From Escherichia coli (GTDB lineage Bacteria; Pseudomonadota; Gammaproteobacteria; Enterobacterales; Enterobacteriaceae): 64,000 bases of DNA. Position numbers and translations under genes: made by a program. The notes beneath the pieces are model-generated. The model saw only the letters and a program-made list of their open reading frames with translations, did no database searches and was not told where the DNA came from. Within the stretch, counting starts at the first letter, position 1, and each line of letters begins with the position of its first letter. The DNA lies in assembly GCF_016903815.1 (NCBI RefSeq), contig NZ_CP069973.1; one strand, given 5' to 3'. Positions 6,748-64,000 of the stretch are shown here, one piece after another.

Positions 6748-6926
6748 TGTTTATTTATCACTTTGGCAGAGTAATTATCCTGTGCACTATTAATAGCAAT
6801 GTCGCCATGCACATTTACCTTGCAGTTAATTGAATAAAAATTTAACTGGCATCAGTCCTAAAAAAATTGATTTCATCCGCAGGCTATTGACAGAATAATT
6901 CAGACTGGTCTTTCAGGCATCCAGAC

Positions 6927-6937
6927 ACGCTACCGCC
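6927..6937 (-). promoter_or_regulatory. ops element (GGCGGTAGCGT) within JUMPStart leader of the colanic acid operon, RfaH antitermination site
   Basis: Exact reverse complement acgctaccgcc found in the long 5' leader upstream of wza. Confidence 0.7.
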
Positions 6938-7405
6938 CCTGGCTTTTTAGCTACCAATACACTGATTTAGCTTAATTTTTAAAACCCTCTCAACATACAG
7001 TCGTTGATGAGAAAGGGTTATTGCGGAAATTAACTTCCGAATATAAGGTGACATTATGGTAATTGAATATTGGCTCTCCAATAATGCAGGAGGAAGTGTT
7101 ACAGCTAACGGAATAGCAGGCAAGGTAACAATTCGGTAATTGGCTATTTTTAAGAATTATATTAAGTGTCATTCAATATGGTTTTTAGGAGTTTCTTTAG
7201 GTTGACAATATTTAATATTGCGCCTCCACATGCGATATTTCTTAAATAATGTTTTATTATTACCACTTTTAATTCAGGGATAATGTGAGGTTATTACCCT
7301 CAAATAATATGAGATAAATAGTGCTGCAACATTGCATTTTTGCCCCGATTTATCCATGATCGAATTGTGACATTTGTCATACAACGAATAGGTTTTGTAC
7401 TTACT

Positions 7406-12452: not shown

Positions 12453-12769
12453 ATATTTAGCGACCTGATTAACCTGGATGTTAGGAAGGGGGCGACGAAG
12501 CGCCAAACGCGGCAATTATAGGGATTTCATCCGCCTGATACCAGTCGAATAGCGTTGCCGCGCGCTCAGAGTAATTGTTGACGAATAATTCCCGGTGGCA
12601 AATTACGTTGTTCAGTTTTAATGCAAGGTAAAAATTGTTATACGAAGTTGCGCAAATTATCCGCCTTTACGTCACTTTATGAGCAATTCGCATATAAAAT
12701 GTAAAACTTTTGTACTAGCATAAACACAGAAACGAATACTGGCGACCTGGTCTTACGGATAAAGCGGTA

Positions 12770-21144: not shown

Positions 21145-21906
21145 TCATTCTGTCCACAGCGCCAGTGCCAACGTTTTATCATCATCGGTACGCTCGTTTA
21201 CCGCCGGGCCGGACAAAAACTGCTTTAACAATTCAGGTAATAAATCGAGTTGTTCCTGCGTTGCTGACGCCAGCCCATTGAAAAACGGGGTAAAGAAAGG
21301 CACATGGGGAGAATTATCCAGCATATTTAACGCCAGCCGCTGGATACCATCCGTAAATGCTGCAACTTTGTGCGCACGCTCAGTGCTGGTGAAAGTTTCC
21401 AGTCTGGAAACCGCATCTTCATCGGTAATGAAGTGCGTCATGTTGGCATATTCACCCACCATCGGCGTGAGCGGCAGTTGCAGACCGTGCCCCAAATCTA
21501 CCACCATGCCGCCATCGCCAATCTGCATAATCAAGGTGCCGTCAGGCGATGAAATCAGTCCCAGAAATGTGCAGGCAAAATCGCGAACCTCTAATTCTTT
21601 TGCCTCTGCCTCGGCAAAAAGTCGCTGACGAATGGTCAGCACAATATCCGTGGCGAGGACATCATTAAGCCCCAATTCCCCGCCCTGCACTTTTTGCGAC
21701 ATATAAGCCATCGCTTCATTGACGGCGAGCATCGCGCCTTCGCCACCCTGCGAGACACTGCCTGCGCCATCAGCGACAAATACCGACAATAATGGCTGCT
21801 GGTCATTTAACCAGGCAACCTGCATCTGGCAGGCATCCTGGCAAGGCAAGTCCGCGCTGATGTGCGACGTTCCAACGGTTGATGCATAGACCAGACGCCA
21901 GCTCAC
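21145..21906 (-). CDS. pphC: PP2C-type Ser/Thr phosphatase PphC (YegK)
   Basis: 253-aa ORF; overlaps yegL stop by 4 bp (operon). Confidence 0.8.
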
Positions 21907-22562
21907 ACTGACGTCCAGCCTTTTGGCGCTTCCAGCACAACTTCCGTTCCCGGCGTGGAGTGGGAAACCGAACGCAGCGAACTGGATAACCAGCTAAACA
22001 GTTCACGGAATTGTAATCCCTGCAGTGGCAAAGGCTGACGAACGCTGATTTGTGCCAAAGTCTTCATATCCGCCCCCTGAACACCGATGGAAAAGAAGGC
22101 AAACTTCTTATCTTCTTCCCCCTGAAACACTTTGTTGGCGGCAGCCTGCCACTCATCGGTTGGAGCGCCATCGGTGATCAGGAAAATCCACGGGCGATAA
22201 TAGGAAATACCATTGGCGCGATACTCACGTTTGCGCTCCTCAACCATATCCAGGGCTTTGGTAATGGCGGCCCCCATTGGTGTATCGCCCTGGGCAAACA
22301 GGATGGGCGGGAAAAAATTAGCGGCGCTGGTAAAGGGTTGTTCCACATGCACCGGGCCGAACGTCACAATACCGAGTTCCACTCTTTTTAAGGCCAGCGA
22401 ATCGGCAAGCAGCTCATCGCGAAAGGTAACCAATCCGGCGTTAAGTTCATTAATGGGTCTACCGTTCATAGAACCAGAAACATCCAGCAGCAAAATGCAG
22501 GGGCAACGTGGTTCCGGGTTACTGGCAAAATCGCTGGTGGCAAACGTGATTTGTTCGCTCAT
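21903..22562 (-). CDS. yegL: von Willebrand factor A domain protein YegL (TerY-like)
   Basis: 219-aa ORF with vWA MIDAS motif (DVSGSM) near the N-terminus. Confidence 0.85.
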
Positions 22563-22744
22563 AAGAAATCCTTTCTTAGAGAATTATTGAGGTCCGGTAT
22601 CATACCGACTGCAACAATGAAATATGAGCAGGCAAAGCAACTTTCAGAATTAGGCCCGGCGGCGCAGAAAATTTTGCTATTCGCCTCGCAAGAACGGAGA
22701 GCCGTCGATTGACACTAAGGGCGGAGTGACATAATTTCAGGAGT

Positions 22745-22890
22745 GAGGGTTAGGGAGAGGTTTCCCCCTCCCCCTGGTGTTCTTAGTAAGCCTGGAAGCT
22801 AATCACTAAGAGTATCACCAGTATGATGACGTGCTTCATCATAACCCTTTCCTTATTAAAAGCCCTCTTCTCCGGGAGAGGGTTTCCCGT
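22745..22890 (+). ncRNA. sibA: Sib antisense sRNA, copy 1 (approximate ends)
   Basis: Antisense to the ibs ORF; ends in a GC hairpin plus T-rich tract (ccctcttctccgggagaggg tttcccgttt). Boundaries estimated. Confidence 0.45.
22783..22842 (-). CDS. ibsA: Ibs type I toxin peptide, copy 1 (MMKHVIILVILLVISFQAY)
   Basis: Minus-strand 19-codon ORF encoding a hydrophobic Ibs-family peptide inside tandem repeat unit 1. Confidence 0.75.
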   Translation of the reverse strand: MMKHVIILVILLVISFQAY

Positions 22891-23079
22891 TTCAGCGTCC
22901 CGCTGAAATCGTCGGCTTACCTCCTTTCGCCCTGAATGCAGTCTATCGCTAACGCGTGAACAAAATAGTTTCCTCTGTGATTATTGCGTAACGACTCGCA
23001 AAGAATATTTGCTGGCAGGATCGCAGACTGCAAAGCCTGCAGATTGACAATCTTATCGTGAAGGCATAATTTCAGGAGT

Positions 23080-23225
23080 GAGGGTAGAGCGGGGTTTCCC
23101 CCGCCCTGGTAGTCTTAGTAAGCGGGGAAGCTTATGACTAAGAGCACCACGATGATGAGTAGCTTCATCATGACCCTTTCCTTATTTAAGGCCCCTTCCT
23201 CGGGAGGGGCTTTCCCGTTTCAGCG
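23080..23225 (+). ncRNA. sibB: Sib antisense sRNA, copy 2 (approximate ends)
   Basis: Antisense to ibs copy 2 with a matching terminator hairpin; boundaries estimated. Confidence 0.45.
23115..23171 (-). CDS. ibsB: Ibs type I toxin peptide, copy 2 (MMKLLIIVVLLVISFPAY)
   Basis: Minus-strand ORF encoding an Ibs-family peptide inside repeat unit 2. Confidence 0.75.
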   Translation of the reverse strand: MMKLLIIVVLLVISFPAY

Positions 23226-23404
23226 TCCCGCTGAAATCGTCGACTTACCTCCTTTCGCCCTGTATGCAGTCTATCGCTGACTTGCGGATAAAATAGTTTC
23301 CAGTGTGATTATTGCGTAACGTCTCGCAAAGAATATTTGCTGGCAGGATCGCAGACTGCAAAGCCTGCAGATTGACAATCTTATCGTGAAGGCATACTTT
23401 CAGG

Positions 23405-23552
23405 AGTGAGGGTAGAGCGGGGTTTCCCCCGCCCTGGTAGTCTTAGTATGCTGGGTAGCTAATCACTAAGAGCACCACGATGATGATCCACTTCATCATG
23501 ACCCTTTCCTTATTTAAGGCCCCTTCCTCGGGAGGGGCTTTCCCGTTTCAGC
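23405..23552 (+). ncRNA. Sib antisense sRNA, copy 3 (approximate ends)
   Basis: Antisense to ibs copy 3 with the same terminator-like hairpin; boundaries estimated. Confidence 0.4.
23443..23499 (-). CDS. Ibs type I toxin peptide, copy 3 (MMKWIIIVVLLVISYPAY)
   Basis: Third Ibs-family ORF in a third tandem repeat unit (period about 330 bp). Confidence 0.7.
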   Translation of the reverse strand: MMKWIIIVVLLVISYPAY

Positions 23553-23777
23553 GTCCCGCTGAAATCATCGGCTTACCTCCTTTCGCCATGCACGTAGTCT
23601 ATCGCTAACGCGTAGATAAAATAGTTTCATGTGTTATTACTGGATGCGTGCTCGCAAATGTGCCCGCCATTCAGACGATTCCCGATAGTGTTTCATAATT
23701 CCTCCATTTTTCTCCCTTATTGGCTGGCTACACTAGTATCATTCCGCGAAACGTTTCAGGAAGAGAAACTCTTAACG

Positions 23778-25025
23778 ATGAAAGGTAGTTATAAATCCCG
23801 TTGGGTAATCGTAATCGTGGTGGTTATCGCCGCCATCGCTGCATTCTGGTTCTGGCAAGGCCGCAATGACTCCCAGAGTGCAGCCCCAGGGGCGACGAAA
23901 CAAGCGCAGCAATCGCCAGCGGGTGGTCGCCGTGGTATGCGTTCCGGCCCATTAGCCCCGGTTCAGGCGGCGACCGCCGTAGAACAGGCAGTTCCGCGTT
24001 ACCTCACCGGGCTTGGCACCATTACCGCCGCTAATACTGTTACGGTGCGCAGCCGCGTGGACGGTCAACTGATGGCGTTGCATTTCCAGGAAGGCCAGCA
24101 GGTCAAAGCAGGCGATTTATTGGCAGAAATTGACCCCAGCCAGTTCAAAGTTGCATTAGCACAAGCCCAGGGCCAACTGGCAAAAGATAAAGCCACGCTT
24201 GCCAACGCCCGCCGTGACCTGGCGCGTTATCAACAACTGGTAAAAACCAATCTCGTATCTCGTCAGGAACTGGATGCCCAACAAGCGCTGGTCAGTGAAA
24301 CCGAAGGCACCATTAAGGCTGATGAAGCAAGCGTCGCCAGCGCACAGCTGCAACTCGACTGGAGCCGCATCACCGCGCCAGTTGATGGTCGCGTTGGTCT
24401 CAAGCAGGTTGATGTTGGTAACCAAATCTCCAGTGGTGATACCACCGGGATTGTGGTGATCACCCAGACGCATCCTATCGATTTGCTCTTTACCCTGCCG
24501 GAAAGCGATATCGCTACCGTAGTACAGGCGCAAAAAACCGGAAAACCGCTGGTGGTAGAAGCCTGGGATCGCACCAACTCGAAGAAATTAAGTGAAGGCA
24601 CGCTGTTAAGCCTCGATAACCAAATCGATGCCACTACCGGTACGATTAAAGTGAAAGCACGCTTTAATAATCAGGATGATGCGCTGTTTCCCAATCAGTT
24701 TGTTAACGCGCGTATGTTAGTCGACACCGAACAAAACGCCGTGGTGATCCCCACCGCCGCTCTGCAAATGGGCAACGAAGGCCATTTTGTCTGGGTGCTG
24801 AATAGCGAAAACAAGGTCAGCAAACATCTGGTGACGCCGGGCATTCAGGACAGTCAGAAAGTGGTGATCCGCGCAGGTATTTCTGCGGGCGACCGCGTAG
24901 TGACAGACGGCATTGATCGCCTGACCGAAGGGGCGAAAGTGGAAGTAGTGGAAGCCCAGAGCGCCACCACTCCGGAAGAGAAAGCCACCAGCCGCGAATA
25001 CGCGAAAAAAGGAGCACGCTCCTGA
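23778..25025 (+). CDS. mdtA: Multidrug efflux RND membrane fusion protein MdtA
   Basis: ORF track starts at 23631; ATG at 23778 ([14 protein letters not shown]...) gives 415 aa; stop overlaps mdtB start. Confidence 0.9.
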
Positions 25026-36831: not shown

Positions 36832-36865
36832 TACAGCTGCATTTATTAAGGTTATCATCTGTTTC

Positions 36866-36952
36866 GCTGAAAAACATAACCCATAAAATGCTAGCTGTAC
36901 CAGGAACCACCTCCTTAGCCTGTGTAATCTCCCTTACACGGGCTTATTTTTT
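36866..36952 (+). ncRNA. cyaR: CyaR (RyeE) Hfq-dependent sRNA
   Basis: gctgaaaaacataacccataaaatgctagctgtaccaggaaccacctccttagcctgtgtaatctcccttacacgggcttatttttt matches the remembered CyaR sequence, including terminator hairpin and U-tract. Confidence 0.85.
36926..36952. other. P2 attachment core (27 nt), host/prophage junction overlapping the cyaR terminator
   Basis: aatctcccttacacgggcttatttttt is the reverse complement of the P2 att core AAAAAATAAGCCCGTGTAAGGGAGATT as recalled; ogr begins about 100 bp further on. Confidence 0.7.
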
Positions 36953-49145: not shown

Positions 49146-49771
49146 AAAGGACTCCCGGTTGTGCCGCCGCTGTCGCCGGGGTGTTTGTGGGTATGCAGTA
49201 CCTTACCGTTTGATGAGAGTTCACCGCCGGTGTGTTCAATGTTGCCGCGCATCGTCCCGCCCTTCTGCACTTCCAGCGTGCCGGTAGTCAGTTTGTTAGT
49301 GCAGACCACTTCTGGTGTGTCCAGGGTGACGCGGGTTGATGCTTTCACCGTGACCACTGGTACCGTGGCAGTAACAGAATCAGAAGCCGTCACGCTGGCC
49401 GTTTTAATTCCGCTTACCGTGAGTGCACTGGTTTCAGGTTCATACTCAATCACCGCCCCGTCAGGGAAACGGATATGCAGGGCATCCGCCGACGCAGACG
49501 GCGCAGGGTTATCGCCGGAATAAATCCCCGGCAGAACGAACGCCGTGTCGAGTTCACCGCCCACGGCCAGAATCAGCACCTGTTCCCCCACGGAAGGTGC
49601 CCACCATGTGCGCGAACGCCCAGCGCGATGGGTCAGCCACTGAAGCCAGTCGGTGCACATGCCGCCAGTCTGCACACGGCAGCGACCGGCATTAAGGTCG
49701 GTTTCGACGATAATGCCAGTGCGAATCATATTGCGTATAAAGCGAAGAATTTCATTGTATTGTGCATTCAT
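49142..49771 (-). CDS. V: Baseplate spike protein V
   Basis: ORF track 235 aa; internal start MNAQYNEILRFIRNM gives about 209 aa (P2 gpV about 211 aa). Confidence 0.85.
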   Translation of the reverse strand: MNAQYNEILRFIRNMIRTGIIVETDLNAGRCRVQTGGMCTDWLQWLTHRAGRSRTWWAPSVGEQVLILAVGGELDTAFVLPGIYSGDNPAPSASADALHIRFPDGAVIEYEPETSALTVSGIKTASVTASDSVTATVPVVTVKASTRVTLDTPEVVCTNKLTTGTLEVQKGGTMRGNIEHTGGELSSNGKVLHTHKHPGDSGGTTGSPL

Positions 49772-49857
49772 TCGATAATAATGATTCTGTACAATCTCGA
49801 AGTAAATCACACCACGATTTCTGGTGCACAGAACAACAAGGGACAACAAAATCCATT

Positions 49858-50931
49858 ATGAGTACTTACTTTTTCTCGTCAGAAACAATGAAAGAATTGT
49901 TCAAAGATTATCTGGTCTTTTTGAACACGCTGACTCCCAGCACAAACTTTGAATCAAACAGAAACAAAATAATTGCTCAAGCAATAAACTTCATTTCCGA
50001 AAACCCTGAAGATTGGGACAAAAAATCCCAGTACAACATTGCTATGATTGGCGACACCTTTAAAAGTTTCTTAAGAGAAAAGGGGGAAGATAACAACAGC
50101 ATCAACCTTATATTCACTTGCTTTTTTAGATTTATCATTGAACCAAGCATTCTCTCTCCGGAAATAGAGTCTCACTTTTCACCACTAAGAACCATCAAGG
50201 ATTTTGCTCTGTATAACTATAATGAATTCGATGAGCGGAGCAGAGCACAGATAGACTTTTCTCTTAGAGAACTGCCATTAGCAATGGTTAAAGAAGTTTT
50301 AAGCTCCAGCAATGTTGACACATATAAAAAATACATTGATAGTTTAAACGAAGGGCGTCAATTTTTCGAAAAGTGCGACTCCTTCTTAAAGGAGCAACAT
50401 GCCAAAATAGAGTCAATTAAAGAGTCATTAAAAGGGTATGAGGTCGCATTTAATTTTGTTGGATTGTTTGATGGCTTTAATTCACTTGGCAAAAAGAAAG
50501 AAAGTGAAATCATGCTATCAAGAATAATTCTTATCATCTTGGCTATAATCATTCCCTCCCCGCTGATATACTATGGAATGCATAAATTACCAACTCTCGA
50601 AACGACAAATGCTGCCACATATTTTATGTCAGCACTACCTTTTGCATCAGTTACATTGATTTTCATGTATTACTTTAGAGTTGTACTGATAAATCATATA
50701 TCGTTACGAACTCAGATTATGCAAATAGAACTCAGAAAGAGCCTTTGTCAGTTCATTCAGAGTTATAGCGACTATTCCTCAGAGATAAGGAAAAACAATC
50801 CGGAAGCGCTTTCAAAATTCGAAGACGTAGTATTTTCAAACATCATGCTATCCGATGATAAGATACCATCTACATTTGATGGCATTGAGCAAATAGCATC
50901 GTTAATCAATTCATTAAAAAATGGAAAGTAA
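49858..50931 (+). CDS. Hypothetical two-TM membrane protein (cargo gene between V and S)
   Basis: ATG at 49858 (MSTYFFSSETMKELF) gives 357 aa; AT-rich; soluble N-terminal region, two hydrophobic helices (IILIILAIIIPSPLIYYG and ALPFASVTLIFMYYF), C-terminal tail; opposite strand to phage late genes. Confidence 0.65.
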   Translation: MSTYFFSSETMKELFKDYLVFLNTLTPSTNFESNRNKIIAQAINFISENPEDWDKKSQYNIAMIGDTFKSFLREKGEDNNSINLIFTCFFRFIIEPSILSPEIESHFSPLRTIKDFALYNYNEFDERSRAQIDFSLRELPLAMVKEVLSSSNVDTYKKYIDSLNEGRQFFEKCDSFLKEQHAKIESIKESLKGYEVAFNFVGLFDGFNSLGKKKESEIMLSRIILIILAIIIPSPLIYYGMHKLPTLETTNAATYFMSALPFASVTLIFMYYFRVVLINHISLRTQIMQIELRKSLCQFIQSYSDYSSEIRKNNPEALSKFEDVVFSNIMLSDDKIPSTFDGIEQIASLINSLKNGK

Positions 50932-50935
50932 TGAT

Positions 50936-50963
50936 AAAAGGCCAATAACTGGCCTTTTATTTA
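50936..50963 (+). terminator. Rho-independent (probably bidirectional) terminator
   Basis: aaaaggccaataactggcctttta: hairpin flanked by A-run and T-run, between the cargo gene (+) and S (-). Confidence 0.6.
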
Positions 50964-51033
50964 TTAACATGAAAATTCAAAATAAATTATGCTAATCAAT
51001 TGATTTCTATCTTATATTCTCAGATGATTAAAT

Positions 51034-60596: not shown

Positions 60597-62021
60597 ATGG
60601 TTTCGTCAAACGTCAAAATAGCAGCATTTCCAGCAAAAAGATTCTTTGTTGAGATGCTCACCCGAGATATTGAGTTGTCTGACTCAATTCTAGATTTACT
60701 AGATAACTGCCTAGATGGTGTATTAAGAAAAAACAATTTCACTCCAGAGCAAACCTTCGGTAAATCAGACGTTTACAAGGGTTACTATGCTCATATTGAA
60801 TTTGATGAGAATAGTTTCAGAATAACTGATAATTGCGGAGGTATTCCAGCAAAACTTGCGGAAAGCTATGCGTTTAGGTTGGGTAGACCTGCAGAACGTG
60901 AGGCGGATGATCTCCCGACAATTGGTGTATATGGTATCGGAATGAAACGAGCGATTTTCAAAATGGGGACATCTGCTCAGATTTTAAGCAAAACTGAAAA
61001 CGAACAATTTTCAGTTACCATTTCTCCTGAATGGATGGCTGATGATGAAAACTGGTCTTTGGAGTTAGAGCGAAATAATGTTGACTTAAACGAAACAGGC
61101 GTCAGCATCCAAATTAACAATTTAAGGAAAGATATTAAAGCATCCCTATCAAAGGATCGTGGCTTTGAAGAAGTTTTGATTAATATCATAGCAAATCATT
61201 ATAGTTTAATCATTAAAAAAGGGTTTGAGGTTAAAGTAAATGGATGTATTGTTAAGCCAAATAGCACCAATTTAATATTTGATGAAGAAGCCATTAAAGG
61301 CAATACCGACGGCATTGCTCCTTATGTATATAAAAATAATTCAAATGGAGTTTCAATTAAAGTTGCAGTTGGATTTTATCGTAACTTGCCTAGTGAGGAA
61401 GAAGAAGAGAATTTATTATCAGGCCGTTCCACAACAGAAAAAGCTGGTTGGACAATTATATGCAATGATCGTGTAGTCCTACATGCGGATAAAACCAAGC
61501 TTACAGGTTGGGGAGAAGCTGGAGTTCCACAATATCATACTCAATTCATCGGAATTTCTGGTGTTGTTATTTTCACATCATCAAATGCTGAATTACTACC
61601 TATCACTACAACTAAACGAGGTGTTGATGGTAACTCTGAGCTATATCTTTCTACTAAAGATTTTATGCGCGAGGGTTTAAAATTCTTCACGGACTTTACC
61701 AACAAATGGAAAAGTAACGCAGAGGAAAGAAAGCAAATTATTAATACTGCATCCAATATGGTTTCAACAACTGAGGTCGACTTTACTAAATCAATTCCTA
61801 GAGAAAACTGGTCGAACGTTCGACGTTCAATAGGAGGAGAAGTTTTCAAACCGAAGCTACCAATGCCTCGGGATTCGGATCCATTACGTCAGATAAAATT
61901 TAGCCGTAGACATAGTGAAATAAAACTGGTGTCAGAGTTTCTCTTTGATGATGCAACTCAACCACCAACAGAGGTTGGTCAATATTGTTTTGATGAATTT
62001 CTAAAAAAGGCTAAACAATGA
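60597..62021 (+). CDS. GHKL-superfamily (Bergerat-fold) ATPase, cargo gene 1 of a two-gene operon
   Basis: 474 aa, AT-rich. GHKL motifs readable in order: N-box DLLDNCLDG, G1 box ITDNCGGIP, G2 box GVYGIGMKRAIF. SD aaggat 6 nt upstream of ATG. Confidence 0.75.
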   Translation: MVSSNVKIAAFPAKRFFVEMLTRDIELSDSILDLLDNCLDGVLRKNNFTPEQTFGKSDVYKGYYAHIEFDENSFRITDNCGGIPAKLAESYAFRLGRPAEREADDLPTIGVYGIGMKRAIFKMGTSAQILSKTENEQFSVTISPEWMADDENWSLELERNNVDLNETGVSIQINNLRKDIKASLSKDRGFEEVLINIIANHYSLIIKKGFEVKVNGCIVKPNSTNLIFDEEAIKGNTDGIAPYVYKNNSNGVSIKVAVGFYRNLPSEEEEENLLSGRSTTEKAGWTIICNDRVVLHADKTKLTGWGEAGVPQYHTQFIGISGVVIFTSSNAELLPITTTKRGVDGNSELYLSTKDFMREGLKFFTDFTNKWKSNAEERKQIINTASNMVSTTEVDFTKSIPRENWSNVRRSIGGEVFKPKLPMPRDSDPLRQIKFSRRHSEIKLVSEFLFDDATQPPTEVGQYCFDEFLKKAKQ

Positions 62022-63010
62022 GTACTGGCGGAAGCATCCCATATCATTTGCGGCAAAACAAAGCCATTGAAAGGAATCTATTTATAGAATCCCTAAGAAG
62101 GTTAAACAATTATACAAACATATCCGAATATGTATATATAGGATTCGGGGGGCCTTTCCTCGAAGATTTCAAACAAATTCATAATTTGTTAAAAGTGACT
62201 AAAATGATATCTATCGAAGGAGATAAAAATGTCCATTGCCGACAACAGTTTAACAAACCATTATCTTGCATAAATTTGGGTGATACCCCAGAAATGAGCG
62301 GAGACTTCATCAATCGCTATAACTTTGACGATAAAACGATCATATGGTTAGATTATGCAACGCCTTCAGACTTAAATGCTCAGTTAAATGAAATAGTTAA
62401 TTTGGTTACAAAGCTAAAACCCAAAGACATTTTTAAGATCACTTTAAATGCAAACCCTGAAGCCTTGGGAAAAAACCCGAGCGAACGAGATCCAAGAGCA
62501 TATAGATTTCAAAAGATAAACGATATTTTGACTCAAGATTTTTTACCACCGAATGCAGTAGTCGAAGATGTCGGATTTAAAAAATACCCTATGCTCCTAG
62601 TTAATGCTATGAGACGCGCAATAGGGCATGGATTAAAAGGTCGAAATGACATAAGAATACATCCATTAACTTCTTTCGTTTATAAAGATGGCCAACAGAT
62701 GGTTACTTTAACAGCTATCGTTCTTGAAAACACTGATACAGAAGAAGCTAAATTTATTGATAATTCCAGAATCAAGAATTGGCCATTTTATGATGGGAAG
62801 TGGAGTAATCCTAAAAATATAAACGTCCCTGCTATGTCTTTAAAAGAAAGGATACATATTGAATCTTTATTACCCGAAGCTTCAGTAGAAAACATCCATG
62901 AAACTCTAGGGTTTTACATTGGCTCCACTCCTTCTGGAGCCAACTCCGATCTAAGTAATTTTATCGAATACTACAAGGTCGTTCCATGGTATTCAAAGAT
63001 TCTTTTTTAA
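62018..63010 (+). CDS. Hypothetical protein, cargo gene 2 (partner of the GHKL ATPase)
   Basis: 330 aa; start overlaps the upstream stop (ATGA), implying translational coupling. Gly-rich YIGFGGPF then ISIEGD and IIWLDYATPSD resemble a Rossmann-like nucleotide/SAM-binding fold only loosely. Confidence 0.65.
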   Translation: MSTGGSIPYHLRQNKAIERNLFIESLRRLNNYTNISEYVYIGFGGPFLEDFKQIHNLLKVTKMISIEGDKNVHCRQQFNKPLSCINLGDTPEMSGDFINRYNFDDKTIIWLDYATPSDLNAQLNEIVNLVTKLKPKDIFKITLNANPEALGKNPSERDPRAYRFQKINDILTQDFLPPNAVVEDVGFKKYPMLLVNAMRRAIGHGLKGRNDIRIHPLTSFVYKDGQQMVTLTAIVLENTDTEEAKFIDNSRIKNWPFYDGKWSNPKNINVPAMSLKERIHIESLLPEASVENIHETLGFYIGSTPSGANSDLSNFIEYYKVVPWYSKILF

Positions 63011-64000
63011 CTTTTAAACAGTAATCGTATAAAGGTAATAGCATAGCCTCAGCCACAAGCGGACTAACGCTATTACCTATCTGTCTAAAACTGTGCCACT
63101 TTGTAGGATGAAAACGGAACCAATCAGGAAACCCTTGTAACCTAGCTGCTTCACGAGGAGTTATCACCCTAGCTTGAGTAGGGTGAATTGGCCTAACGGC
63201 CTGATAACTCCCCTTGTCACTTCCTGTACCTGCTCTCAAAGTTGGACAAAAACCGTTAGGATTGAGTCGTTGTGATCTCGAAATCTTATCAGTTTCACCG
63301 AATGAAAGTTGTCTATATCTCCTGAGCACTTCCTCCGAATGAGCTGTACCTAAAAAGCCAGATACCAATCCTTTCTTTAAATTTTGAATGGATTCTGCAT
63401 CACCTACACCATTTGGTATATGTCCCCAAAGTCGCTCATAATAGTAACCATCTTTATCCATTTTTACTGAACGCCAGCCTTGCTCCTCTGTCTGCCACTC
63501 TTTTCTTATAGTTCGCGGTAATCCGTAGAGTGCATCTTTGACAAGAGTCTGCTCTATTATATTTTTAGGAAAAAAATCAGATTCTTTTAACTGATTAATA
63601 AAACCTCTTTTAAAACCCATGAAAAATATTCGTGTCCGTGTCGTAGGTGCTCCATAATTTGAAGCATTAACCCTTATTGGATGTAATAAACAATAGCCAT
63701 CTCTAACTAAAGAAAATGCTTCTTCTCTTACTGGATTATATTTCTCACCCATAATTCCTGGAACATTCTCTGCCAAAAAACAAATTGGAGATAACTCACT
63801 TACCAACCTAAAAAAATGAATATACAATTCATTTCTTGTATCATTGGCATTCCTTTTTCCAATGGTGCTAAATCCTTGGCAAGGTGGACCACCAATAACG
63901 CAATCAATGTCCTTTACAGCACATGCAGACAAAATATCTTTTGCTGTAAGCGAGCAGACATCCCGATGCAAATGTGTTGATTTTGGGAAGTTTAACTCAT
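62961..64000 (-). CDS. DNA (cytosine-5)-methyltransferase, C-terminal part in window (N-terminus beyond window end)
   Basis: m5C-MTase motifs: GGPPCQGFS (motif IV), FLAENVPG (motif VI), TTRTRIFF (motif VIII), IGNSVSP (motif X). Reading frame stays open past 63971 to the window edge, so motif I lies outside. Confidence 0.8.
   Translation of the reverse strand, partial: ELNFPKSTHLHRDVCSLTAKDILSACAVKDIDCVIGGPPCQGFSTIGKRNANDTRNELYIHFFRLVSELSPICFLAENVPGIMGEKYNPVREEAFSLVRDGYCLLHPIRVNASNYGAPTTRTRIFFMGFKRGFINQLKESDFFPKNIIEQTLVKDALYGLPRTIRKEWQTEEQGWRSVKMDKDGYYYERLWGHIPNGVGDAESIQNLKKGLVSGFLGTAHSEEVLRRYRQLSFGETDKISRSQRLNPNGFCPTLRAGTGSDKGSYQAVRPIHPTQARVITPREAARLQGFPDWFRFHPTKWHSFRQIGNSVSPLVAEAMLLPLYDYCLKVKKESLNTMERPCSIR

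Follow-up and report, generated by a model that had tools for sequence, protein, structure and literature searches.

Three Ibs/Sib modules between yegL and mdtA in Escherichia coli: one state of an old copy-number polymorphism

The yegL-mdtA spacer of the window analysed here (the whole stretch of Escherichia coli DNA under study, 64,000 nucleotides long) carries three tandem type I toxin-antitoxin modules of the Ibs/Sib family at the standard sibA/sibB locus, and we estimate at roughly 93% the probability that this arrangement is one state of an old polymorphism, ranging from one to four units, that is kept and reshuffled by homologous recombination. In each module, a sigma-70 promoter (TTGACA, 17 nt, TAATTT or TACTTT) would drive synthesis from the plus strand of a structured Sib RNA of 136-144 nt, down to an 11-bp GC-rich hairpin, and the opposite strand encodes a hydrophobic Ibs peptide, 18-19 residues long, whose ORF is preceded by a strong Shine-Dalgarno sequence. 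Given the homology with the K-12 SibC/ibsC pair, each Sib is expected to pair with ibs mRNA from two exposed target recognition domains, one within the ORF (TRD1) and the other at the translation initiation region (TRD2), and this pairing would block ibs translation, trigger cleavage of the mRNA and keep the membrane-active toxin off. Units 1 and 2 correspond to K-12 ibsA/sibA and ibsB/sibB and unit 3 to a further SibB-type allele, the variation among alleles gathering in two hairpin-loop patches that might set antisense specificity.

The array is flanked on its left by yegL (21903-22562, minus strand) and on its right by mdtA (23778-25025, plus strand). Tandem Repeats Finder delineated it at 22730-23639, with a period of 328, 2.8 copies, 89% matches and a score of 1419, and a repeat search recovered three-copy repeat families spaced by 328-335 bp between the two genes, in agreement with the threefold unit of about 330 bp described for 22705-23700 in an earlier note made from the letters of this DNA. 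An Rfam scan of the whole window at gathering thresholds returned three plus-strand matches to SIB_RNA (RF00113), at 22709-22857, 23044-23186 and 23372-23514, each of which spans the full covariance model (1-147). With 149.5, 143.5 and 139.2 bits, respectively, for a gathering score of 56 (E-values 1e-28 to 3e-31), these scores are far above chance level. In every unit, one minus-strand ibs ORF overlaps one plus-strand Sib gene, and the sense/antisense overlap is complete. The three SIB_RNA matches and three minus-strand ORFs, between the flanking genes that had been named, thus bear out the claim of three Ibs/Sib units in this spacer, each feature described being present where it had been placed. 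Aligned with E. coli strain 7/2 (NZ_CP023820.1), the window is collinear and shows a single mismatch over the first 41 kb, and the 1,216-bp yegL-mdtA spacer is 100% identical in the complete genome of that strain, where RefSeq names all three ORFs of the identical sequence Ibs family toxins.

Sib coordinates were transferred from MG1655, where sibA and sibB are annotated as 144 and 136 nt and start 38 and 35 nt, respectively, outside the stop-codon end of ibsA and ibsB. The promoter of unit 1 (22709-22737, plus strand) consists of a -35 TTGACA (22709-22714), a 17-nt spacer and a -10 TAATTT (22732-22737) that is overlapped by CATAAT (22730-22735), and in alignment it is exactly that of K-12 sibA from -45 to +8. 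The RNA placed downstream of it by the MG1655 sibA offset, the antisense antitoxin SibA (22745-22888, plus strand, 144 nt), differs from K-12 SibA by 1 nt, and its predicted fold (-58.5 kcal/mol, z -5.4) has a terminator hairpin at 22860-22885. Unit 2 has the same promoter arrangement (23044-23072, plus strand), with TTGACA at 23044-23049, a 17-nt spacer and TAATTT at 23067-23072; a single base separates it from the K-12 sibB promoter, the -10 region reading CATAAT here and CATACT in K-12, which makes the former closer to consensus. Its RNA (SibB, 23080-23215, plus strand, 136 nt), called Sib2 below, is likewise 1 nt away from K-12 SibB, and its terminator hairpin occupies 23188-23213 in a predicted fold of -62.5 kcal/mol (z -4.5). 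In unit 3, TTGACA (23372-23377), a 17-nt spacer and TACTTT (23395-23400) make up a promoter (23372-23400, plus strand) that is identical to that of K-12 sibB from -38 to +8, and Sib3 (23408-23543, plus strand, 136 nt), a SibB-type allele, folds at -60.1 kcal/mol (z -4.4) and has its terminator hairpin at 23516-23541. Units lacking Sib promoters, which according to the earlier note would have spoken against its reading, were thus not found, all three keeping promoters of the K-12 type.

All three Sib RNAs begin with a G, in agreement with the +1G reported for sibA and sibB (PMC12956327). They adopt a common predicted fold, in which a closing stem, P1, pairs the Sib 5' end with ACCCUU, just 3' of the complement of the ibs start codon, and is accompanied by three internal hairpins and the 11-bp GC-rich 3' hairpin, which is followed in each RNA by an interrupted U tract (UUUCCCGUU). 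The terminator-like hairpins that had been noticed on the plus strand are therefore present, as 11-bp GC-rich stems in all three minimum-free-energy folds, and it is at this hairpin that the annotated 3' ends of the K-12 Sib RNAs fall. A consensus promoter/terminator scan called none of the Sib promoters or plus-strand terminators, its spacing, hexamer and T-run rules excluding both TTGACA-17-TAATTT and UUUCCCGUU; the terminators escaped this simple scan because their U tract is interrupted. It returned nothing except the hairpin of unit 1, in minus-strand reading, and a promoter-like site near mdtA. The Sib signals were accordingly assigned by alignment to the annotated K-12 genes and by folding.

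On the minus strand, ibsA (22783-22842, 19 codons) encodes MMKHVIILVILLVISFQAY, has its Shine-Dalgarno at 22845-22854 in plus-strand coordinates and specifies the same protein as K-12 IbsA (RefSeq WP_010723109.1). The product of ibsB (23115-23171, minus strand, 18 codons, MMKLLIIVVLLVISFPAY) is the same protein as K-12 IbsB (WP_001386899.1), and the third ibs gene (23443-23499, minus strand, 18 codons) encodes MMKWIIIVVLLVISYPAY, which departs from IbsB by L4W, L5I and F15Y and bears in strain 7/2 (WP_100249716.1) the annotation 'type I toxin-antitoxin system Ibs family toxin'. No two of the three peptides are identical, as had been remarked from the sequence. With fewer than 20 residues, they were assigned to their family by the RefSeq annotation of the identical sequence and not by HMM. 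All three ORFs are hydrophobic, of the MMK...AY type, and begin ATGATGAAG behind the Shine-Dalgarno sequence AAGGAAAGGG, and each lies wholly within the region complementary to its Sib, as positioned from MG1655. When the upstream regions of the three genes were aligned with those of ibsC, ibsD and ibsE, the 5' leader hairpin was found to be conserved, and the site matching the ibsC -10 (TACGAT) is occupied by GACGAT in the first two units and by GATGAT in the third; no clear -35 of a toxin-side ibs promoter was seen in units 1-3 in this alignment.

The units are separated by two internal spacers, at 22889-23043 and at 23216-23371 (the latter delineated by repeat search and unit alignment), which are 92.3% identical and differ at 12 of 156 positions (7.7%). 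The minus strand of spacer 1 should carry the ibsA 5' leader hairpin, TTTCAGCG-TCC-CGCTGAAA (22890-22908), together with a putative ibs promoter. The terminal spacer (23544-23777) is homologous to the internal spacers over its first ~95 nt, the remainder being unique up to mdtA; a promoter-like site (23670-23699) is found in this unique part, ahead of mdtA. RecA-dependent recombination needs roughly 25-30 bp of identity. Successive units, spacer 2 and its neighbours included, have exact runs of 73-76 bp in common, which exceed this length and make unequal exchange between units a plausible mechanism for gains, losses and the shuffling of variable patches. The recombination invoked in the earlier note is therefore plausible, but what the note implies, a noteworthy expansion from a two-unit baseline, is not supported.

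Over 300 nt, units 2 and 3 have 92% identity. Exactly nine positions (+42, +45, +49, +54, +57 and +80 to +83) distinguish Sib2 from Sib3, which are the same over +1 to +41 and +84 to +136. The first patch (+42 to +57) corresponds to the TRD1 hairpin and the second (+80 to +83) to the loop of the ATG hairpin, opposite ibs codons 4-5. On the toxin side, the first translates into four synonymous changes and one non-synonymous change (F15Y) in codons 12-17 and the second into two non-synonymous codons (LL to WI). In a set of 15 different SibB-type sequences, taken from E. coli and from other members of Escherichia, recurrent variation is concentrated in the same two patches, and folding places both of them within the apical loops of predicted hairpins or next to these. 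Different combinations of these patches (LL-F, WI-F, IL-Y, LL-Y and WI-Y) are found across strains, in several orders, which points to exchange between units. The combination borne by the third unit, WI-Y, is in the minority, 127 of 5,349 matching E. coli records having the Sib3 allele at at least 99% identity. Sib1 is more distant, since it is separated from Sib2 and Sib3 by ~30 substituted positions and three indels (eight nt in total), with a longest common run of 14-16 nt. A unit-by-strain comparison showed that unit 2 and its spacer are closest to middle units (96.6% identity with O157, 95.7% with ST3), that unit 3 is closest to terminal units (97.3% with ST3 unit 4, 95.4% with O157 unit 3 and 94.5% with K-12 unit 2) and that unit 3 is only 79% identical to the neighbouring unit 2. 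Judged by its sequence, unit 3 is a further SibB-type allele and not a fresh copy of unit 2.

The toxicity of Ibs and its repression by the cognate Sib are known for K-12 members of the family (PMC2943612). Sib binds ibs mRNA via TRD1, which is the P5 loop and lies inside the ORF, or via TRD2, either being sufficient for repression (PMC2943612), and sequence differences in the TRDs let each Sib tell its cognate mRNA apart (Han et al. 2010, PMC2943612). Because Sib2 and Sib3 are identical from +84 to their 3' end, a perfect 53-nt portion that includes TRD2, we infer that they would cross-repress each other's ibs mRNAs, and the cross-protection thus predicted is testable. The part that the +80 to +83 patch might play in specificity is conjectural, as it lies outside TRD2 as defined for SibC. 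Since ibsA expressed from its own context was not lethal without SibA (Han et al., PMC2943612), some units may be functionally weak. A broader and rather doubtful possibility is that the array behaves as a system of recombining cassettes, in which the two loop patches would be under diversifying selection at the RNA level and shuffled by gene conversion, yielding partly orthogonal antitoxins. If so, strains would possess their own antitoxin sets, Sib2 and Sib3 would back each other up through their common TRD2, and WI-Y would be a recombinant of patches seen apart in WI-F and in LL-Y/IL-Y alleles.

That three units are nothing out of the ordinary emerged from a comparison of the 1,216-bp spacer with 5,426 complete E. 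coli genomes. Identity was at least 95% in 2,410 of the 5,422 matching records, which correspond to the three-unit state to judge by the sampled rows: when 40 records were sampled at even intervals, every match of at least 95% over the whole query was a single collinear three-unit alignment, and two further records of at least 95%, covering 88-90% of the query, also had three units. Two-unit genomes such as K-12 gave at most 94.1% identity and an alignment in two pieces. Three units were counted in 18 of the 39 informative sampled records, two in ~17, four in two and a single one in one. Some 44-46% of complete E. coli genomes thus have three units, a state about as frequent as two, these fractions being estimated from identity bands and the 40-record sample. 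Inspection of individual arrays at this site revealed two units in K-12, three in O157:H7, four in ST3, two in EC958 (ST131), which is without ibsA, and one, adjoining an IS150, in HL15. Strain-to-strain differences in the total number of Ibs genes, tabulated in Fozo et al. 2010 (PMC2887945), are in the same vein: Salmonella has two such genes, K-12 five, EDL933 six, and each of Sakai, S. boydii and E. fergusonii seven (PMC2943612; PMC2887945). The three-unit layout therefore belongs to an old and ordinary copy-number polymorphism and does not represent a new expansion. The K-12 array does have two units at the yegL-mdtA site, as the earlier note said (sibA and sibB are both in the MG1655 annotation), but it is just one state of this long-standing polymorphism and could equally be a deletion product.

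Could the third unit nevertheless have been gained recently, in one lineage, by unequal crossing-over in a K-12-like two-unit array, much as the earlier note had it? K-12 indeed has two units, units 1 and 2 of the window encode exactly the K-12 IbsA and IbsB, the 73-76 bp of exact inter-unit repeats could support such an exchange and the third allele is uncommon (the 127 records mentioned above). However, copies made recently should be nearly identical, and yet 12 of 156 positions differ between the spacers and nine clustered ones between Sib2 and Sib3; unit 2 has its nearest relatives among the middle units of other strains and unit 3 among their terminal units, not in its neighbour (79%); and three-unit arrays occur in ~2,400 complete genomes from very different lineages. 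We therefore consider a recent gain most improbable, and a copy-number expansion from a two-unit baseline is supported neither by the prevalence of three units nor by the divergence between them. A recent segmental duplication, as would be recognized by near-identical copies in a narrow lineage, was discarded as well, with identities of 92% and 92.3% between copies and an occurrence in ~44-46% of genomes. Nor does unit 3 look like a decaying, non-functional repeat copy that is passively carried. Its -10 (TACTTT) is weaker than TAATTT and its allele is rare, but ORF, Shine-Dalgarno, promoter and terminator are all intact, the promoter equals the one of K-12 sibB, for which a SibB RNA is annotated, the covariance model gives it 139 bits, its predicted fold is the same as that of Sib2, and it departs from unit 2 in the two loop patches alone instead of at scattered positions, all of which makes decay very unlikely. 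As for a false expansion of a two-unit repeat during assembly, what speaks for it is the general risk inherent in tandem repeats and nothing else. The units differ by 8-30% and so could neither be collapsed nor duplicated by mis-assembly, a finished genome contains the identical 1,216 bp, and arrays of three units in collinear order recur in thousands of complete assemblies. The chance of an artefact is negligible, and this explanation was rejected in view of the 100% identity with strain 7/2 and of the thousands of finished genomes with three units.

The direction in which the polymorphism has moved is a matter on which the evidence is more evenly divided. Three or more units might be ancestral in E. 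coli, with the K-12 array resulting from a deletion in which a middle unit recombined with a terminal one, a scenario to which we would give somewhat less than an even chance. In its favour, K-12 unit 2 joins both patches of the window's middle unit, that of TRD1 and that of codons 4/5, to the terminal spacer and has the TTTATGG variant, which the terminal units of O157 and EC958 also show, one-unit arrays produced by other events exist (the IS150 beside the single unit of HL15 is an example) and other Escherichia species already have two SibB-type units. Against it, there is one unit in E. whittamii, in Escherichia sp. MOD1-EC7003 and in the Salmonella and Citrobacter genomes examined, and the window's own terminal unit has TTTAAGG, the TATGG marker being inconsistent across strains. 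These outgroups, a small sample, were located by scanning one genome per species for a pattern, and their units were then counted by running Rfam on the loci retrieved; the exact-pattern scan was strict enough that the main E. coli representative was not returned, one outgroup locus (L018) is short and maybe truncated on the yegL side, and the tblastn hits of mdtA in other species served for location only and not for identity values. In this sample, Salmonella diarizonae and the Citrobacter genomes have one Sib unit upstream of mdtA, which encodes a 19-residue IbsA-like peptide, Pseudocitrobacter has two next to mdtA, E. whittamii and Escherichia sp. MOD1-EC7003 have one each and Escherichia sp. 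E1V33 has two. The single unit in Salmonella and Citrobacter implies multiplication at the mdtA site on an evolutionary timescale, and the two-unit array of K-12 may itself be a contraction.

Several elements of this picture, namely the Ibs/Sib family, its yegL-mdtA locus, the strain variation in ibs copy number and the three-unit RefSeq annotation, are already known. What the old polymorphism described here adds is a correction, since the two units of K-12 are no baseline and three are about equally common, and the observation that SibB-type variation resides almost only in two hairpin loops, which recombine between strains. Such a pattern accords with the published proposal that diversification of the recognition loops enables paralogous antitoxins to distinguish their targets. 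The closest known relatives are K-12 ibsA/sibA and ibsB/sibB themselves (RF00113 SIB_RNA, formerly QUAD repeats), which have the same locus, orientation and unit architecture as the array in the window, identical IbsA and IbsB, SibA and SibB that differ by 1 nt each, and identical or nearly identical Sib promoters. The window has in addition a SibB-type unit (Sib3/ibs3) between ibsB and mdtA, and its unit 2 is followed by an internal spacer, whereas that of K-12 is followed by the terminal one. In number of units, O157:H7 is more alike, with IbsA first among three units, a 328-bp period, the same flanking genes and an alignment to the 1,216-bp query in one collinear piece at 95.7% identity, but its alleles are IbsA, WI-F and IL-Y, in place of IbsA, LL-F (IbsB) and WI-Y in the window.

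Further afield, K-12 sibC/ibsC (Han et al. 2010, PMC2943612) belongs to the same RNA family and also has its ORF wholly inside the antisense RNA, and the hairpin loop equivalent to TRD1 is variable in the window array too. SibC stands alone at fau-serA, however, and TRD2 differs between paralogs, whereas it is identical in Sib2 and Sib3 of the window. Finally, sibD/sibE (yqiK-hldE), ldr/rdl and zorO-orzO/zorP-orzP likewise combine a small hydrophobic toxin with an antisense RNA, in tandem within one intergenic region, and vary in copy number by strain as does the array described here, although they occupy other loci and ldr and zor belong to other sequence families.

Other states of the array of Ibs/Sib type I toxin-antitoxin units in the yegL-mdtA spacer are found at the same locus in other E. 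coli strains. ST3 has four units, HL15 has a single unit that abuts an IS150, and EC958, which belongs to ST131, has two units of the SibB type and no ibsA. The first of the two ST131 units carries a unit-1-type upstream flank on a SibB-type unit, which suggests that it is a hybrid made by recombination.

The chromosomal backbone is essentially identical to that of strain 7/2 (NZ_CP023820.1), a collinear complete genome, and the sole difference in the first 41 kb is one substitution at 12755, which precedes the start codon of dgcE by 15 bp. Other RNA elements in the window include a JUMPstart element on the minus strand (6926-6964, 57.3 bits), which lies upstream of wza where the colanic acid operon starts, and the CyaR/RyeE sRNA on the plus strand (36864-36949, 100.7 bits), which is directly ahead of the prophage gene ogrK. 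Directly after yegQ and CyaR comes a complete P2-like prophage (37054-64000, extending past the window end) with ogrK, tail, baseplate, lysis, capsid, terminase and portal genes, at a position where K-12 presumably has only an ogrK remnant. In contrast to the backbone, this prophage is 98.4-99.4% identical to its counterpart in strain 7/2.

One prophage segment (49736-51028), lying between the baseplate V gene and the virion-morphogenesis gene, is unlike strain 7/2 and appears to be a site at which P2-like phages carry variable cargo. It contains a plus-strand ORF of 357 aa (49858-50931) with hydrophobic C-terminal stretches, for which searches with Pfam and PADLOC returned no match, and which could be an uncharacterised defence or exclusion gene. 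A second cargo block (60597-63971), with portal genes on one side and replication genes on the other, encodes a 474-aa HATPase_c_3 protein and a 330-aa Methyltransf_35 protein (a putative O-methyltransferase), together with a C5 DNA cytosine methyltransferase whose gene is on the strand opposite to the other two. This block may be a modification-linked defence module.

In the array itself, the terminal spacer upstream of mdtA has a promoter-like site, TTCAGA-18-CATAAT (23670-23699). The same spacer also contains TTTTTCTCCCTTATTGGC (23690-23720), which resembles the box that BaeR binds in the mdtA promoter. Each Sib terminator is followed by a perfect 8-bp inverted repeat, TTTCAGCG-TCC-CGCTGAAA (22890-22908, 23218-23236 and 23546-23564), which, read on the minus strand, would fall at the 5' terminus of the ibs transcript. 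An inverted repeat of the same form is conserved in the regions upstream of ibsC, ibsD and ibsE, the K-12 family members at other loci, and the mapped start site of ibsC lies 18 nt past the 3' end of Sib, near the equivalent of the place that the inverted repeat occupies in the window.
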